A stretch of DNA of 64,000 nucleotides from a virus: IMG/VR virus record IMGVR_UViG_3300012277_000051, positions 4,041-68,040 of that record. One strand, written 5' to 3'. The stretch's first letter is position 1. Each line of letters starts with the position of its first letter. This document shows, piece after piece, positions 8,267 through 48,406 of this stretch. The translations under genes and the position numbers were made by a program. The notes beneath the pieces are model-generated. The model was given only the letters and a program-made list of their open reading frames with translations. It made no database searches and was not told where the DNA came from.

Positions 8267-9386
8267 AAATGTAGAAATCTATGGCTACAACGAAGACATA
8301 TCTGACTTGGTGGAAAAAATAAGCAGAAGCCACCGTGTTCATACGATGGTGATTAATTCAGACGGGTATATTTTGGCTGGTCATCGCCGTCATCGTGTCT
8401 GCCTGCAATTGGGAATTAAAGAAGTTGATGTTGAGATAAGAGATTTTAATTCACCAGAAGAAGAGATTGAGTTTATTATCGATGACAATGCTACTAGGGA
8501 TAAGACGGTGGAACAGAAGTCCAGAGAAGCGAAGGAACTAAAGAGAATCGAGAAGCCTTTAGCTATAAAGAGAATGGCAATTGGGGGAAAAGGCGGATTT
8601 AAAGGTACGGCGAATTCGCCGTACCTTATAGAACAAATAGAACAAGTAGATCAAGGAGAAACACGCGATATTGTTGCCCGTAAAGTAGGGCTTCGGTCAG
8701 GTAGAGAAGCTGAGAGGGCCATAACAACAGTGGAAATCATTGATAAACTCAATGAAGATGGCAGAACTGAAGATGCTGACTTGGTAAAAAGTGTCTTAAA
8801 TAATGGTTCTGTATCAGCCGCCGAAGAATTAGCCAGGAATATTGACAAGGTGGAAATTCCTGAAGACGCTATCGATTTGGTTAAGGCAGGAAAGCGCAGT
8901 CCTCACTCTTATATAGAGAAAGCTAAAGCAAAAACAAAGCAGAAGGCCCTTTCAGAGGGTGATCCCATTCAGCCTGAAACCAAGAAATGCAATTGCTGTG
9001 GTAAAGAACTTCCCCTATATGAATTTACAGGAGAGAGTAACACCTGTAGAGAATGCCGTGCTGCTAAGGACAGGGAACGTAGGTCTGGTATTTTTAAAGA
9101 TTCCATGGGTAATCTCATTGAGTATGATAAATCTATTGTCGGCAGTGATGTAATGTTAGAGGTTATTGCTGATTTGAAAAACGAGAAAGATACCAAACAA
9201 GGAATCAATTATGGGATAGAGTTTGAACTATTTTTGTCTAATCTTAATGACTACCTTTTTGCCAATCAGAAATTTATTGATGGTGCTATATTTTTGAATA
9301 TGCCATCTGATATAAAAAATAAATTCAAGGAGGAGATGACTAGATTATCGGATTTTACGCAAGTGTTAAAGAAAAATTTAAAATAA
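8220..9386 (+). CDS. ParB-like nuclease-domain protein with an internal CxxC...CxxC region
   Basis: N-terminal KPHPKN...ILAGHRRHRV (ParB N-terminal domain arginine box); overlaps the upstream gene end. Confidence 0.65.
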   Translation: MIMEKRKISELKPHPKNVEIYGYNEDISDLVEKISRSHRVHTMVINSDGYILAGHRRHRVCLQLGIKEVDVEIRDFNSPEEEIEFIIDDNATRDKTVEQKSREAKELKRIEKPLAIKRMAIGGKGGFKGTANSPYLIEQIEQVDQGETRDIVARKVGLRSGREAERAITTVEIIDKLNEDGRTEDADLVKSVLNNGSVSAAEELARNIDKVEIPEDAIDLVKAGKRSPHSYIEKAKAKTKQKALSEGDPIQPETKKCNCCGKELPLYEFTGESNTCRECRAAKDRERRSGIFKDSMGNLIEYDKSIVGSDVMLEVIADLKNEKDTKQGINYGIEFELFLSNLNDYLFANQKFIDGAIFLNMPSDIKNKFKEEMTRLSDFTQVLKKNLK

Positions 9387-14870: not shown

Positions 14871-14943
14871 AAATAAATAAAGAAAACTGTTGACACGGTG
14901 AGAAATAAGTGATATAGTTACGTCAGAAGGAAATAAAGAAAAC
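14871..14943 (+). promoter_or_regulatory. motif-flanked promoter: AAATAAATAAAGAAAAC, then TTGACA-N17-TATAGT, then a second AAATAAAGAAAAC at the predicted transcript 5' end
   Basis: -35 at about 14890-14895, -10 at about 14913-14918; motif copies at 14871-14887 and 14931-14943. Confidence 0.6.
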
Positions 14944-16514: not shown

Positions 16515-16531
16515 AAATAAATAAAGAAAAC
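16515..16531 (+). promoter_or_regulatory. 5'UTR copy of the AAATAAATAAAGAAAAC motif just upstream of the RBS of the 16549 gene
   Basis: Exact 17-mer, preceded by a hairpin at about 16476-16502. Confidence 0.5.
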
Positions 16532-16875: not shown

Positions 16876-16906
16876 TTGATGGTGCATTTTTTAAAAACAT
16901 ACACAA

Positions 16907-16919
16907 AAATAAAGAAAAC
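16907..16919 (+). promoter_or_regulatory. 5'UTR copy of AAATAAAGAAAAC upstream of the 16936 gene
   Basis: Exact 13-mer followed by CAAAAG and the RBS. Confidence 0.5.
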
Positions 16920-28786: not shown

Positions 28787-29000
28787 ACCGATAGCAGAAC
28801 GGTTTAAAGAGGTGGCAGCCACCATCTCCGACGATGAAATTCGTTCTCTAATTAAAGAGGAACTGAGAGAGCAGATCCGTAGCCAAGTTGAATTTGGTTC
28901 TACGATTGCAGAATGGGTTGATACGTATATGGAAGAAGACGAAATGTGTGAACTTGTAAAGGAATGCTTGGTGGGTAGCATTAAGAGAAAGTTTACGTAA
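28752..29000 (+). CDS. hypothetical protein
   Basis: ORF track; RBS aaggagatagaaaat. Confidence 0.4.
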   Translation: MTDQTRDYITLKPIAERFKEVAATISDDEIRSLIKEELREQIRSQVEFGSTIAEWVDTYMEEDEMCELVKECLVGSIKRKFT

Positions 29001-29039
29001 TTACCAGTAAATATCAATTTGCTTTTGAAAGGAGCCTAT

Positions 29040-29258
29040 ATGCCAATAAGTTATCTACATAGCGATCCGGATATTAGGGGAGAAGTCTGCCCGACTTGTG
29101 GTAGGCGGTCGTGGAGCATATATAGATGTGATGATTGTGGTAAGGTGTTTTGTAAGTATTGTAGACCTGATCTTGTAAATTCACTTGATGATGAAAGATT
29201 TGGAGATATGGAAATTAAGTGCGATTGTGGCAGTGTATCATTGTTTTTAGATGAATAG
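29040..29258 (+). CDS. zinc-ribbon protein
   Basis: ATG after aaaggagcctat; CPTCG...CDDCG...CDCG. Confidence 0.4.
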   Translation: MPISYLHSDPDIRGEVCPTCGRRSWSIYRCDDCGKVFCKYCRPDLVNSLDDERFGDMEIKCDCGSVSLFLDE

Positions 29259-29270
29259 GAGAAAATTAAA

Positions 29271-29549
29271 ATGAAGCCATTAGTATATTTTGATTTTGAA
29301 GAATTTGATGTAGACCCAAACCTTGTGTTGATTGATAAGAAGAGGTTACAGGAGATTTTAGAGGAAGTATATAATGCTGGTTTTGATGACGGTAAGAAGT
29401 CAAATATAATAACCGTCCCGGCGAGTCCGAATTGGAGATCCTCGTTGCGTGGAGATGAAGTTACATGTGGAGAGATTTACACTAACTCACCAGTCGCCAA
29501 ACGGGGTGTTACTATTACATGTGGCACTGAAACTACTAGCAATTCTTAA
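29271..29549 (+). CDS. hypothetical protein
   Basis: ORF track; RBS taggagaaaattaaa. Confidence 0.4.
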   Translation: MKPLVYFDFEEFDVDPNLVLIDKKRLQEILEEVYNAGFDDGKKSNIITVPASPNWRSSLRGDEVTCGEIYTNSPVAKRGVTITCGTETTSNS

Positions 29550-29574
29550 TTTCATTGAATATGAAAGGAGAGTG

Positions 29575-29727
29575 TTATTTTTCAATACTCTCCACATAAT
29601 CAATAAGTATTTTAACCATCAGATTATTAAGACTTCTGTTATCCTGCTCTGCCAACTCTTCCAGTTTCATTTTTAATTCTGTCGGTAAGGTAATAATTGT
29701 TCTTGTTTTGTCGCTTCCAACTGCCAT
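29575..29727 (-). CDS. ribbon-helix-helix (CopG/Arc/MetJ-like) DNA-binding protein, divergent from the TnpB-like gene
   Basis: RTIITLPTELKMKLEELAEQDNRSLNNLMVKILIDYV is a beta-strand followed by two helices, typical of RHH. Start trimmed to the internal ATG preceded by AAAAGGAG; a hairpin at about 29567-29592 overlaps the stop. Confidence 0.6.
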   Translation of the reverse strand: MAVGSDKTRTIITLPTELKMKLEELAEQDNRSLNNLMVKILIDYVESIEK

Positions 29728-29855
29728 AATATCACGCTCCTTTTTATAAGATGATATCATGATGTAAAAAATATGTCAAGGTGATATCACTTTGATGTTG
29801 ACAATGTGATGTAATAGTGATATTATAGTGATATCACTAGAGAGGAGGTGAGAAG
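29726..29855. promoter_or_regulatory. divergent control region: TTGACA-N17-TATTAT promoter for the TnpB-like gene with two perfect GTGATATCAC palindromes (about 29781-29790 and 29828-29837) plus half-site-like copies (about 29752, 29817, 29726)
   Basis: -35 at about 29798-29803, -10 at about 29821-29826; RBS agaggagg; the palindromes flank and overlap the core promoter. Confidence 0.55.
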
Positions 29856-31115
29856 ATGTTAATACAAAGAGTAGAGCAGCAAGTTATAAGGAAATCTCAT
29901 CCAAAATACAAAATAATTGATGAGATGTGTTTCAGATCAAAAGATTTATATAACTATGCAAATTACATTATTCGTCAAGAGTTTATTTGCAAAGGTAATT
30001 ACATTGGCTATTACGATATGAACAAGGAACTCAAAACACATCAGCAATACAAGGACTGCATGAGCCAACCGGCAAATTGTATCCTGAGAAATTTAGACAA
30101 AGCATGGAAATCGTATTTTGCAGCCATTAAAGATTGGAAGAAAAATCCTGGAAAATATCTCGGCATGCCAAAGTTACCCAAATATCTCCATAAAGATGGC
30201 AGATATCCTTGGATGATTCCTAATAACAGTTGCTTCTACAATGATAATGGAACGATACGCTTTAAGATATCTCGTCTTCAGGGTTATATATGGAAATCAC
30301 AATGTTTTGGCAGATTAATTCAAATACGATTCATTCCAAAAGGTTCCTGTTACGTAATGGAAATAGTATATGAAATTGAAGTGTCAGACGAAAAAGAAAC
30401 AGAATCTAAACGAATTGCTTCTATAGATATTGGTGTAGACAATCTTGTAACTATGACAAATAATATCGGCGAACAGCCAATTATTATTAACGGCAAGGGA
30501 ATCAAAAGTATTAACCAATTCTATAATAAGCAGATTGGAAAAGAGAAAAGTTTATTAAAAATCAGACATAATAAAGATTGGAGTAAGAAACTTGATAATA
30601 TTTCATTCAAGAGAAACCAAAAGATTAAAAATTACATGCACAATGCAAGCACATATATTATAAGATGGTGTTTGGAAAATAATATTGATACTTTGGTTGT
30701 AGGTCATAATAAAGAATGGAAACAAGGATCTTCTATGAATAAGAAAAGTAACCAGAAGTTTATAATGATTCCGTTTAATATGTTGTTATGGCATCTTGAA
30801 TACAAGTGCCAGAATGTGGGAATCAAATTCATTCTTACAGAAGAAAGTTATACTTCTGGAACCAGTTTTCTTGATGGAGAAGATCCGGTCAAAAAGAATT
30901 ATGATAAATCAAGAAGAGTTCAGAGAGGATTATTTAAAAGTAATTCTGGAAGATTAATCAATTCAGATGTAAATGGTTCATTGCAGATTATGAAGAAAGT
31001 ATTTCCAAATGCATTTAATGAGTGCTATGGAATAGAGGGTGTTCTAGCCCCTATGGTTATAAGTGTTGCGAAAGTAGCACGATTTACTATAAATGCAATT
31101 GAAAAATTGCAATAG
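29856..31115 (+). CDS. TnpB-like (IS200/IS605 OrfB family) protein, apparently lacking the RuvC-II glutamate and all zinc-finger cysteines; candidate nuclease-dead TldR-like regulator
   Basis: ASIDIGVDNLVT (RuvC-I Asp present); LVVGHNKEW where VEDLN is expected; TSGTSFLDG...GLFKSNSG where CxxC...CxxC is expected; SDVNGSLQI (RuvC-III-like). No adjacent TnpA. Confidence 0.75.
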   Translation: MLIQRVEQQVIRKSHPKYKIIDEMCFRSKDLYNYANYIIRQEFICKGNYIGYYDMNKELKTHQQYKDCMSQPANCILRNLDKAWKSYFAAIKDWKKNPGKYLGMPKLPKYLHKDGRYPWMIPNNSCFYNDNGTIRFKISRLQGYIWKSQCFGRLIQIRFIPKGSCYVMEIVYEIEVSDEKETESKRIASIDIGVDNLVTMTNNIGEQPIIINGKGIKSINQFYNKQIGKEKSLLKIRHNKDWSKKLDNISFKRNQKIKNYMHNASTYIIRWCLENNIDTLVVGHNKEWKQGSSMNKKSNQKFIMIPFNMLLWHLEYKCQNVGIKFILTEESYTSGTSFLDGEDPVKKNYDKSRRVQRGLFKSNSGRLINSDVNGSLQIMKKVFPNAFNECYGIEGVLAPMVISVAKVARFTINAIEKLQ

Positions 31116-31137
31116 AAGTGTAGTTTTATAGAGTTAC
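31094..31137 (+). ncRNA. candidate 3' scaffold end of a TnpB-associated guide RNA: hairpin gcaatt-gaaa-aattgc overlapping the stop, then a short tail ending at TTAC immediately before the repeated phage motif
   Basis: Position and hairpin match where TnpB omega-RNA scaffolds end; not confirmed. Confidence 0.25.
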
Positions 31138-31213
31138 AAATAAATAAAGAAAACTATTGACAAGCACCAGAATAGGTGTTATCATTATGAATGTAATGAT
31201 AAATAAAGAAAAC
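31138..31213 (+). promoter_or_regulatory. motif-flanked promoter: AAATAAATAAAGAAAAC, then TTGACA-N17-TATCAT, then AAATAAAGAAAAC at the transcript 5' end
   Basis: -35 at about 31157-31162, -10 at about 31180-31185; motif copies at 31138-31154 and 31201-31213. Confidence 0.55.
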
Positions 31214-31232
31214 CAAAAAGGAGAAATAAGCA

Positions 31233-31346
31233 ATGAAGGGAAAGAAAACAGAATTTGCATGGTTCAAAAGTATTATGAGTAAGGTGAAGAAGAACAAGCC
31301 AGAGATCGCAGCCAATGGAAAGGTTAAATGGGGAGCTGGTAAGTAG
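31233..31346 (+). CDS. small basic hypothetical protein (37 aa)
   Basis: ATG after aaaaggagaaataagca; first ORF downstream of the motif promoter. Confidence 0.25.
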   Translation: MKGKKTEFAWFKSIMSKVKKNKPEIAANGKVKWGAGK

Positions 31347-31367
31347 AGAGGAGGTAATCGATTTAAA

Positions 31368-31550
31368 ATGGGAAGATTCTTAATCTTCATAGGTGTTACA
31401 TTACTATTAATATTGTTCGGGCTAATTATTTGCTGGATTGGCAACAAAATATACATAGTTATGAAACGCGAGAACAGAAAATTTGATATTGAAAATCAAG
31501 CCTACGATAAGGCAGTTAAAGAAATCAAAAACTATAAAGGAGAAAATTAA
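31368..31550 (+). CDS. small single-TM membrane protein
   Basis: FLIFIGVTLLLILFGLIICWIG. Confidence 0.4.
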   Translation: MGRFLIFIGVTLLLILFGLIICWIGNKIYIVMKRENRKFDIENQAYDKAVKEIKNYKGEN

Positions 31551-31553
31551 TTT

Positions 31554-32453
31554 ATGAAAACAAAGATTTTTGGAGGAATGGTAATTGCGGCAGCGTTGAT
31601 CGGAGGGATTTATACGGTCATGTCATTGACTAAAATTAATCAGGGAGAAGTTGGAGTTGTTTACTCTATGGGAAGTGGTGTTCAGAAGGAAACGTTGTCA
31701 CCCGGATTTCATTTTGTTGGGCCATTCGATAAGGTGAAGGAGTTCCCAATCTCGCAGCAACAGTTGGTACTAAGCAACAACCCGTCTGACTATAACAAAA
31801 AAGAACACGCCGATTGGCACGTTGACGCTCCAGCAAATGGAGGCATGGTAAAAATGAATCTAACTATTAACTATAATTTTATGGCTGACAAAGTGGTGGA
31901 CCTCTATTCAAAATTTAACGGAATGGACGGAGAGACAATAGTCGATAATATGGTTCAGAATTCCATTATTGCATATGTTAAGGAAGTTACCCCTCAGTTT
32001 TCAGTTATGGATATTTACAGCACCAAGCGTTCCGAGGTGGGAAAGTCAATTACTGATTATCTTAATAACAAGCTTAATGACGAGTATGGAATCAATGTTT
32101 CCAGCGCATTAATTATTGATGTACAGTTAGATGAAGCATTGCAAGCAAAGATTCAGGCAAAAGAACAGGCTAAACAAGATGCAGAAAAAGCGGATTTGGA
32201 TAGACAGACAGCTCAGGCACAAGCGGAAGTATCCAAGGTAAACGCCGACACAGATGCAGAAGTTCAGAGAATTAAAGCAGAAGCTGACGCTGAAAAAACA
32301 AGAATTGCAGCTAAGGCGGAAGCCGATGCAAACGCAATGTTGAGCAATTCAATCACTCCGGAGTTAATCCAGATGAAAGAGGCCGAAGCAAGATTGAAAC
32401 ATGGTTGGGTTACTACACAGGGAGCCAGCACCGTAGTTTCTAACCCACAGTAA
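31554..32453 (+). CDS. SPFH/band-7 (stomatin/prohibitin-like) domain protein
   Basis: N-terminal TM helix, then the SPFH core and an Ala/Glu/Lys-rich coiled-coil tail. Confidence 0.8.
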   Translation: MKTKIFGGMVIAAALIGGIYTVMSLTKINQGEVGVVYSMGSGVQKETLSPGFHFVGPFDKVKEFPISQQQLVLSNNPSDYNKKEHADWHVDAPANGGMVKMNLTINYNFMADKVVDLYSKFNGMDGETIVDNMVQNSIIAYVKEVTPQFSVMDIYSTKRSEVGKSITDYLNNKLNDEYGINVSSALIIDVQLDEALQAKIQAKEQAKQDAEKADLDRQTAQAQAEVSKVNADTDAEVQRIKAEADAEKTRIAAKAEADANAMLSNSITPELIQMKEAEARLKHGWVTTQGASTVVSNPQ

Positions 32454-48322: not shown

Positions 48323-48335
48323 ACTTGATAGATAT

Positions 48336-48406
48336 AAATAAAGAAAACCATTGACAGGAGATTGTTATGGTGATATTATTAATTCATAGTAATAAATAAA
48401 GAAAAC
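48336..48406 (+). promoter_or_regulatory. motif-flanked promoter for the tRNA: AAATAAAGAAAAC, then TTGACA-N17-TATTAT, then AATAAATAAAGAAAAC
   Basis: -35 at about 48351-48356, -10 at about 48374-48379; motif copies at 48336-48348 and 48391-48406. Confidence 0.55.

Follow-up and report, generated by a model that had tools for sequence, protein, structure and literature searches.

Large clades of TnpB carry Gly in place of the RuvC-II Glu, compensated by an alternative Glu; activity is predicted for them, and their mobility was like that of other clades; some of these RuvC-II-rearranged (RIIr) branches are virus-specific, and the zinc finger has been lost in some large TnpB branches (Altae-Tran et al. 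2023, PMC10691335). Fanzors and TnpBs without the canonical Glu all have a conserved Glu ~45 residues away, which is needed for cleavage (ApmFNuc E467A), and the rearranged TvTnpB cleaves DNA in a manner dependent on a target-adjacent motif (TAM) (Jiang et al. 2023, PMC10530073). In TldRs, acidic residues of RuvC are gone, and in many cases so is the C-terminal part with RuvC and zinc finger sequences (Wiegand et al., 10.1101/2023.11.30.569447). In archaeal RHH/MazE-TnpB pairs, a ribbon-helix-helix (RHH) gene lies upstream on the same strand, the RuvC-III Asp is changed to His and the pair has been read as a toxin-antitoxin system (Altae-Tran et al. 2023, PMC10691335). The locus described here occupies positions 29575-31213 of a 64,000-nt stretch of viral DNA (the window; positions 4,041-68,040 of virus record IMGVR_UViG_3300012277_000051), whose composition is that of a Firmicutes-like phage with 34% GC. 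It holds two open reading frames (ORFs), one of 419 aa for a TnpB-family protein on the plus strand (29856..31115) and a small one for an RHH protein upstream on the minus strand, called at 29575..29760. We put the probability at roughly 0.55 that this is a transposase-less, RHH-gated and probably active TnpB-omega-RNA cassette in a variable phage slot, serving as a nuclease for homing or for competition between phages.

Like the RIIr TnpB branches (PMC10691335) and TnpB2/TvTnpB and Fanzors (PMC10530073), the window protein has Gly at RuvC-II and an alternative Glu about 45 residues on (here 47), after strand beta-5. As in other rearranged TnpBs, the Asp residues of RuvC-I and of RuvC-III are intact, and the omega-RNA overlaps the 3' end of the gene and would end in a flank-derived guide. 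Unlike them, the window cassette has no zinc finger, no TnpA and no left end, its unit is the ORF plus the scaffold, and it stands behind an RHH-operator module. An initial annotation, made from the sequence alone, had described the gene as a catalytically degenerate, TldR-like regulator with a guide matching a repeated 17-mer promoter motif. Most of the sequence features it listed are real, and its proposals of repressor control, of a guide-RNA scaffold and of the absence of TnpA and insertion sequence (IS) ends held; what failed was the adjacency of the 17-mer to the 3' hairpin and the reading of 'GHN' as decay, and with them the TldR assignment and the 17-mer guide. The features of the locus are as follows; L with a number labels a compared locus or contig, and P0274 and P0275 label RHH proteins.

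29553..29574, no strand: left junction of the variable RHH and TnpB slot; homology to the TnpB-less relative L202 stops at 29552.
29575..29727, minus strand: RHH gene (CopG-like, Pfam RHH_5), 50 aa, MAVGSDKTR..., as called in L001 and as in 50-55-aa homologs.
29751..29837, no strand: back-to-back divergent promoters with operators, from a promoter scan; the exact palindrome occurs at only two places in the window.
29856..31115, plus strand: TnpB-family gene, 419 aa, RuvC-II-rearranged and zinc-finger-less, with D191, G283, E330 and D371 (Pfam/NCBIfam, AlphaFold2 (AF2), Foldseek).
30993..31117, plus strand: omega-RNA scaffold of six helices, ending in the anchor AATAGAA (RNAalifold, covariation, cmsearch).
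31118..31137, plus strand: putative flank-derived guide GTGTAGTTTTATAGAG(TTAC), from TnpB-less relatives and the points where cassettes diverge.
31138..31213, plus strand: resident phage promoter cassette, outside the TnpB element, conserved in TnpB-less relatives.

In Pfam, the 419-aa protein matches OrfB_IS605 (E 1.6e-20) as well as Cas12f1-like_TNB, and its NCBIfam match is guided_TnpB with 178 bits (cut-off 100). Its AF2 model (pLDDT 90.1; below 50 for residues 412-419) has the TnpB/Cas12f fold, with Cas12f, ISDra2 TnpB, ISFba1 TnpB and mimivirus Fanzor2 as the top Foldseek matches (E 1e-13 to 1e-17 for Cas12f, ISDra2 TnpB and Fanzor2), and both domains place it in the TnpB/OMEGA family. 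A phmmer search of PDB sequences with the single protein returned nothing relevant, and a profile search was used instead. The motifs IDIGV (D191), VVGHN (G283-H284-N285) and NSDVNGS (D371) are present as initially annotated, and, also as stated there, the region between residues 330 and 371 has no Cys; the C4 zinc finger expected between RuvC-II and RuvC-III is missing.

In an alignment of 57 representatives reaching down to 34% identity, G283 and N285, the residues taken earlier as a sign of decay, are invariant, as are D191, K289, S334 and D371. E330, 47 residues after G283, is kept in 56 of the 57 and in all members of a close set (n = 29). Residues 330-371 hold 0-2 Cys in every one of the 57 and none in the close group. 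The Gly at RuvC-II and the loss of the zinc finger are therefore family-wide and not recent decay. In the profile-to-PDB alignment, G283/N285 fall opposite 'EDL' of Cas12f and EESYTS opposite 'DPQYTSQ', and in the AF2 model E329/E330 directly follow the fifth RNase H-fold strand (324-328). The C-terminus is not truncated. With G283 fixed across the family, an alternative Glu and both Asp residues retained and a full C-terminus, the description 'catalytically degenerate' is not supported. Its predicted site matches the published configuration, a rearranged triad D191-E330-D371 in which the alternative Glu would replace the canonical RuvC-II Glu, with the geometry inferred from alignment and model, and we believe that it is most likely an active RNA-guided DNA endonuclease.

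The family is large: more than 6900 homologs at E<1e-5 were found in a set of 5.8 billion proteins, many of them 72-80% identical, and 5303 cluster representatives at 50% identity were matched. Many members come from phage contigs of 100-250 kb and from cultured phages. Lak megaphages, Bacillus phage G (gp662) and phages of Nodularia and Staphylococcus have homologs 38-47% identical that are annotated as 'transposase', and the best 79 IMG/VR loci with relatives are mostly on contigs of 60-250 kb. In many close homologs, ATA, ATT or ACG stands at the position of the window's ATG, with a normal ribosome-binding site (RBS) upstream (L090, L011, L109, L012, L020, L015, L017, L013, L092, L091, L100, L093, L095), which suggests non-canonical and probably weak translation starts.

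The end of the gene reads into a structured RNA. Alignments to close relatives by tblastn cross stop codons (...VINAA*VV*FTINV... aligns with ...VISVAKVARFTINA... in the window), and conservation there is therefore at the nucleotide level. We aligned this region from 36 loci (47-100% protein identity) and from the 17 closest loci, with shuffles and slid structures as controls. Across the 36 loci, 97.2% of cells were paired by RNAalifold compared to 78.6% in shuffles and 28-55% for structures slid by 1-3 columns, and double-change cells numbered 89 compared to 24 in shuffles; one pair covaries between synonymous codon positions within the ORF (TTC/TTT with GGG/GGA; 18 C-G, 16 U-A, 2 others). 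The 17 closest loci gave six helices with 29 pairs, 98.8% paired compared to 82.7%, with compensatory changes in 18 pairs. The helices include 31003-07/31028-32, 31037-39/31049-51 and the terminal hairpin GCAATTGAAAAATTGC at 31096-31111, and the anchor AATAGAA follows at 31111-31117; the 3' hairpin that the initial annotation had proposed as scaffold-like is the last element of this strongly covarying structure. With the covariance model, cmsearch scored the window at 131.9 bits over 30993-31117 with all helices intact, and found no second scaffold in the window and none in the TnpB-less relatives. An Rfam scan of 29000-32000 gave only chance-level hits and no matching family. In all loci, the scaffold ends in a hairpin of variable stem plus a conserved heptamer, AATAGAA in the close group and AATGAAT or AATAAAT in others. 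The usual TAA stop of relatives, which end ...VINVA*, lies in the scaffold hairpin loop (GTAGCGTAAGTTGCA). In the window this loop reads GAAA, and because the stop codon in the loop is lost the ORF runs 14 codons further into the scaffold (31071-31115), to the TAG inside CAATAG.

Where the element stops was examined with cassette pairs and with relatives that have no cassette. In 36 cassette pairs 87-99.7% identical over their last 600 nt (e.g. L033/L089, 99.7%), homology is lost at offset 0 to +2 after the heptamer. A search of IMG/VR with the promoter motif returned contigs of two related ~115-kb phages and a fragment (L200-202), which are not among the best 79 TnpB loci; they are syntenic with the window at 76-95% nucleotide identity over many segments and have no RHH or TnpB gene at the site. 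Their homology to the window stops at 29552 on the left and resumes at ~31110-31118 on the right. The right junction reads ...TTGCAATAGAA GTGTAGTTTTATAGAGTTAC AAATAAATAAAG in the window, ...ACCACAATAGAA GTGTAGTTTTATAAACTTAG AAATAAATAAAG in L202, ...CACAAGAAAA GTGTAG... in L201 and ...CACAAGCAAA GTGTAG... in L200; the natural site, with a slash at the junction, is ...CAAGCAAA/GTGTAGTTTTATAAACTTAG in L200, ...AAGAAAA/ in L201 and ...ATAGAA/ in L202. These comparisons place the end of the element at 31117, and the putative guide is therefore GTGTAGTTTTATAGAG(TTAC), at 31118-31133 or, with the bracketed letters, to 31137, and not the 17-mer that starts at 31138; its length and use are predictions. 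The guide 16-mer is unique in the window, the only other match with three or fewer mismatches (48984, 2 mismatches) being within chance expectation, and in the TnpB-less relatives the guide is matched at positions 1-13, with differences at 14, 16 and 20. Covariation and the boundary at 31117 together give the layout of an OMEGA system, a structured RNA overlapping the 3' end of the gene and a flank-derived guide.

The flank after the scaffold end consists of a hypervariable N6 followed by a conserved TTTYN at +7..+11 (31124-31128 in the window; ~85% of related loci), which extends to TTTCNTTNGGA in a more distant group. TTTYN looks like a target-site feature, because the motif is native to the TnpB-less relatives of the window. 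It may also form a small hairpin with the anchor, or act through anti-Shine-Dalgarno pairing with the downstream RBS; a mini-hairpin of anchor, N6 loop and TTTYN was 80% paired, compared to 77% in shuffles. We rejected as improbable an alternative model with the element's end behind TTTYA and a guide that begins at 31129 and overlaps the 17-mer. The conservation of TTTYN, the divergence of L015 and L018 only after it and the TTTCA at the window's left junction speak for this placement, and a hypervariable N6 inside the element would be compatible with the BLAST result alone, but GTGTAG plus TTTTA is native to the TnpB-less relatives, and N6 differs between near-identical cassettes. As a candidate left-end TAM, TTTYA was sought upstream of the gene, where it had no consistent position. 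An unbiased finder of hairpin-plus-motif anchors picked the wrong motif in many loci and was dropped, and searches for empty sites by neighbouring proteins gave only unrelated prophages for Band_7 and no hits for a 92-aa neighbour. Separately, L030 and L032, whose cassettes are 95% identical, differ by a ~320-bp insertion exactly at the scaffold/guide boundary (L030 4233/4241; L032 4233-4562), which may be a rearrangement hotspot.

On the other side, homology between cassettes begins with the gene itself. In 59 pairs whose genes share 88-92% of nucleotides at their 5' ends, it stops between -4 and +3 from the start codon, and unrelated modules lie upstream: an RHH cassette (L036), a tiny ORF MYQNCCKK (L034, L035, L038, L086) or a CRISPR-like array (L033, L089). 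From these alignments, the conserved unit is the ORF plus scaffold, from start codon to scaffold end (29856-31117). The initial annotation had noted that TnpA is missing, and Pfam found no Y1 or serine transposase among the called genes from -10 kb to +4 kb; conventional IS ends, that is, the left and right hairpin ends of IS200/IS605 elements, and multiple copies are likewise absent, the cassette being single-copy within the 64-kb window. Each exact protein variant looked up had one fixed phage context, co-oriented with its neighbours and not multicopy. Between a conserved upstream gene and a conserved promoter, the window has RHH and TnpB (29553-31117) and the sister phages have unrelated minus-strand genes (L202 6329-7010; L200 about 8300-8800), a pattern that identifies the slot as a cargo-exchange site.

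These boundaries bear most directly on the best-surviving alternative, that the cassette is an ordinary non-autonomous IS200/IS605-type element, mobilised in trans by a host TnpA and without phage function, with the RHH gene as an unrelated neighbour. A huge family found in many contexts, the canonical OMEGA layout of omega-RNA and flank-derived guide, and a conserved TTTYN near the ends that hints at a sequence-specific insertion step would all be expected of such an element, and cassettes of this kind can take up a canonical IS605 TnpB that has a left-end hairpin (L234/L238, below). However, there is no left end, homology of copies 88-92% identical stopping at the start codon; no TnpA lies nearby; exact variants keep to one context in single copy; the cassette is always co-oriented inside phage operons; and different lineages repeatedly show the RHH association, with operators placed alike. 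We consider this explanation unlikely, at perhaps one chance in five.

The small divergent ORF is, as first annotated, an RHH gene (Pfam RHH_5, E 1.7e-7). A product of 50 aa (29575..29727) is more likely than the 61-aa call (29575..29760), because homologs have 50-55 aa, the call in L001 is 50 aa and the upstream ATG lies 5' of the -10 of the RHH promoter. The promoter scan found two back-to-back promoters, each with 11/12 matches: P_tnpB on the plus strand (TTGACA-N17-TATTAT with a TG extension, 29798-29826; -35 29798-29803, -10 29821-29826) and P_RHH on the minus strand (TTGACA-N17-TATCAT, 29779-29751; -35 29779-29774, -10 29756-29751). In the whole 64 kb, exact copies of the palindrome GTGATATCAC occur only at 29781-29790, between the two -35 boxes, and at 29828-29837, overlapping the region just past the -10 of P_tnpB; the promoter and the two perfect palindromes had thus been correctly described. 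A further palindrome, ATGATATCAT, is at 29751-29760. The promoter and RBS of the TnpB cassette match consensus. An inverted repeat read from the sequence (GGAGAGT 29567-73 / ACTCTCC 29587-93) spans the RHH stop codon and may form a hairpin that acts as a terminator; a similar stop-codon-spanning hairpin is found in L221-228. The known behaviour of CopG/Arc-type RHH repressors is the basis for expecting binding to these operators. An RHH fold and palindromes on its own promoter are the marks of an RHH autorepressor, and we predict that the protein represses both its own promoter and that of TnpB.

This layout recurs, which supports the earlier proposal of an autoregulated gene. Upstream of TnpB and divergent from it, RHH homologs of 50-55 aa are present in L036, L039, L240, L236 and L221-228, with TnpB identities to the window protein of 53% (L036), 52% (L039), 75% (L240, a member of an abundant 415-aa cluster) and 52% (L236). 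All of the RHH loci have one order: the RHH start, the RHH -10 and -35, operator 1, TTGACA, and operator 2 at the -10. Within this layout, compared in L036, L039, L221, L234 and L240, the operators covary with the RHH protein: GTGATATCAC in the window, GTGTATCAC / GTGATACAC in L036, GTGATAACAC in L039, GTGGTATCAC in L221 and GTTATATAAC in L240. In L039 the RHH promoter faces a CRISPR-like array and then TnpB. The TnpB paired with the RHH P0274 (159 members, 70% identical) is another one, a canonical 494-aa protein with a zinc finger, and the two genes are divergent in every case; this pair, with identical RHH, is found in at least three different outer flanks, and therefore moves together. Another RHH, P0275, faces a PAPS-reductase operon without TnpB (L229). 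The RHH-operator-promoter module (29553-29855 in the window) is, on this comparison, a portable regulator that has repeatedly been coupled to several TnpB lineages.

Two further arrangements were seen at RHH loci. In L234 (967-2343) and L238 (9-1216), the RHH module is identical to that of L236, and a rearranged-type TnpB is cut after codon 9 (MKVTRVERN*) and followed by a canonical IS605-type TnpB with an HTH_OrfB domain, zinc finger and hairpin left end; one TnpB element has, by its sequence, been inserted into another, and L234 also carries an HNH gene at the TnpB-in-TnpB site. In L036, a second complete omega-RNA scaffold lies behind the RHH gene on the RHH strand (2590-2692, minus), with a remnant of TnpB C-terminal coding sequence and the anchor AATGAAT, then ccgata ATTCC; it scores 35.4 bits, the same as the scaffold behind L036's own TnpB, and the RHH-TnpB unit has outward-facing guide RNAs at both ends. 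No second scaffold of this type is present in the window.

A toxin-antitoxin-like or defence/exclusion module, in which RHH neutralises TnpB and freed TnpB kills the cell or degrades DNA, has been published as a hypothesis for archaeal RHH-TnpB pairs and would be in keeping with the weak RelB-like antitoxin match of the RHH protein (E 6e-4; 20 bits, under the cut-off of 50) and with the RHH-TnpB pair in at least three flanking contexts. The window locus shares with the archaeal pairs a small RHH DNA-binding protein, a TnpB with a non-canonical catalytic site and a long 3' region suited to a guide. It differs in that RHH is divergent rather than on the same strand, the host is bacterial rather than archaeal, and D371 is kept where the archaeal clade has the Asp-to-His change. 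Moreover, the genes do not form an operon, palindromic operators on both promoters indicate transcriptional control, and the RHH module also faces the array of L039 and the PAPS-reductase operon. We find this explanation quite unlikely, at about half the weight that we give the ordinary IS.

Under the reading that we favour, that of an RHH-gated, probably active cassette, both divergent promoters would fire upon entry into the cell. RHH would accumulate, bind the GTGATATCAC operators flanking the -35 and overlapping the -10/+1, and shut off both RHH and TnpB, and the shut-off would leave a pulse of nuclease. The omega-RNA would be transcribed through the 3' end of the gene and end with a guide copied from adjacent phage DNA (31118-~31137). 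The complex would then cut cassette-less related genomes at the site just upstream of the conserved promoter (L200-202 type, 13 guide positions), with gene conversion (homing) or the competitor's exclusion as the expected outcome. The cassette is patchily distributed in related phages, and relatives without it conserve the guide seed; both observations are consistent with this scheme. We liken it to the free-standing homing endonucleases of large phages and to TnpB-mediated transposon retention, reportedly described by Meers et al. The T4 seg/mob homing endonuclease genes and C protein-regulated restriction-modification systems offer a functional analogy and not homology: as with seg/mob, a nuclease gene lies between conserved phage genes, is patchy in relatives and would target the cognate site where the gene is absent, and, as with C proteins, a small autoregulating DNA-binding protein would time nuclease expression. 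Unlike in either, target recognition would be by RNA and not protein.

Several points weigh against this scheme. In L202, the target is preceded on its 5' side by ...ATAGAA, which is also how the cassette itself ends, and the scheme therefore does not account for discrimination between self and non-self. The TnpB-less relatives and the window have different left flanks, and homing would therefore need distant homology arms. Nor does the scheme account for the route to new sites of a cassette with no left end and no TnpA, or for the conserved TTTYN at +7..+11 of the flanks. RHH could also act on the TnpB protein, antitoxin-like, rather than on DNA only.

The 17-mer AAATAAATAAAGAAAAC, which the initial annotation had linked to the guide, occurs in the 64 kb in three exact copies and five with 1-2 mismatches, all on the plus strand, compared to 0.28 expected by chance. 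As it had reported, the motif lies just upstream of the -35 of three phage promoters and again in their 5' untranslated region (UTR): at 14871, 31138 and 48332 it is 2-3 nt upstream of TTGACA, and a second copy follows ~58 nt downstream in the 5' UTR. The full cassettes (14871-14943, 31138-31213, 48332-48406) have the order 17-mer, 2-3 nt, TTGACA, N17, -10, ~12 nt, second copy (A)ATAAATAAAGAAAAC, CAAAA and RBS; at the locus, the 17-mer is at 31138-31154, the -35 at 31157-62, the -10 at 31180-85 and the second copy at 31199-31213, before the RBS. Copies at 16515-16531 and 16903-16919 are of the UTR type only, behind terminator-like hairpins. The two ~115-kb phages have four copies each and keep the cassette at the syntenic site without TnpB, and the 17-mer therefore appears to be independent of this TnpB. 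It is, by this comparison, the phage's own promoter element, which the TnpB cassette simply adjoins, and probably represents an UP-like element plus leader motif or a binding site for a phage regulator.

A nuclease-dead, TldR-like protein whose guide matches the 17-mer, and which binds and regulates several phage promoters, is for these reasons very improbable. It could draw on the absence of the canonical RuvC-II Glu, of the zinc finger and of TnpA, on the repressor control, on a 17-mer truly repeated at promoters and on the position of the guide's own target, directly next to the downstream promoter's UP/-35 region. However, the Gly is paired with a conserved alternative Glu and is invariant across thousands of relatives, as in sites with demonstrated activity; D191 and D371 are both retained, and nothing is missing from the C-terminus. 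The 17-mer does not follow immediately after the hairpin: 26 nt (AATAGAAGTGTAGTTTTATAGAGTTAC, 31112-31137) lie between, so that a 16-nt guide would end short of it and a 20-nt one directly before it, and the window has no second copy of the guide's TAM-proximal part. Like TldRs (Wiegand et al., 10.1101/2023.11.30.569447), the cassette is phage-borne, lacks a transposase, has a single adjacent guide RNA and is stably tied to a non-transposon gene; unlike them, its triad is rearranged but conserved, and its guide matches only its own flank, with no promoter target elsewhere in the window. The RNA-guided regulatory circuit first proposed is absent at this locus. Least probable of all is a decaying, non-functional remnant, for which the lost stop with its 14 added low-confidence residues and the single copy could be cited, since the ORF is full-length with all family-invariant residues, the scaffold (131.9 bits), promoters and RBS are intact and an identical copy is present in a second sample (L001, an identical contig).

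CRISPR-like mini-arrays accompany some relatives. The window itself has no CRISPR repeats or array such as would mark a type V CRISPR-Cas system. In relatives 43-54% identical (L029-L033, L083, L089, at about 2780-2990; also L039, 2780-3005, L047, L052-54 and L076-78), TnpB is directly preceded by a mini-array. The arrays share a leader and have 36-nt repeats like those of type II-A (GTTTTAGAGCTATGTAATTTTAATTAGTAATAAACC); the spacers, 1-3 in number and 30-31 nt long, are not the same in different phages, and the last repeat is truncated and overlaps the RBS of TnpB. For three of the spacers, perfectly matching protospacers lie in other viral contigs (L204-220, L231), where the 5' flanks are CCAAA, CCAAA and GGAA, and two target contigs vary exactly at positions -1 and -2. 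The arrays may serve TnpB or host Cas9, and their matches to viral contigs fit a role in conflict between mobile elements. A scan of L033 for an anti-repeat (tracr) picked up nothing but the complement of the array itself. Array-linked and RHH-linked TnpBs are ~92% identical over the first ~500 nt only, compared to 68% over full length. The leader upstream of the arrays (L033 2707-2792; L039 about 2690-2780) gives a weak match to the omega-RNA model (17 bits, E 0.45) and contains GGATAGTGGGCGTGGGTTTTGTCC, resembling GGGATAGTGGATGCAGGTTCACATCC of the scaffold; the arrays may have arisen next to an omega-RNA remnant.

The TnpB family and its rearranged active site are already known. A megablast search of the region against GenBank phages gave no match, and the literature searched held neither a start-codon-to-scaffold cassette structure nor a divergent RHH platform shared by TnpB lineages, and did not note the mini-arrays, second scaffold, leader, TTTYN or other side features at these loci. 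We tentatively suggest, at less than even odds, that large Firmicute phages carry a class of start-codon-to-scaffold TnpB cassettes on a portable RHH platform as RNA-guided weapons or homing genes between related phages, and that the family also captures stages between omega-RNA and CRISPR, of which the second outward-facing scaffold and the scaffold-like leaders with their arrays would be examples.

The role of TnpB outside canonical IS200/IS605 elements is poorly known, and the step from a fixed-guide TnpB to an array-guided Cas12 is an open question. If the cassette is merely another non-autonomous IS, the finding is ordinary. The locus and its relatives nonetheless form a testable system, with a zinc-finger-less effector of 405-419 aa and a rearranged site, a ~120-nt scaffold, an RHH switch, natural targets in sister phages and close relatives with mini-arrays; if active, the effector would be a small candidate genome editor.

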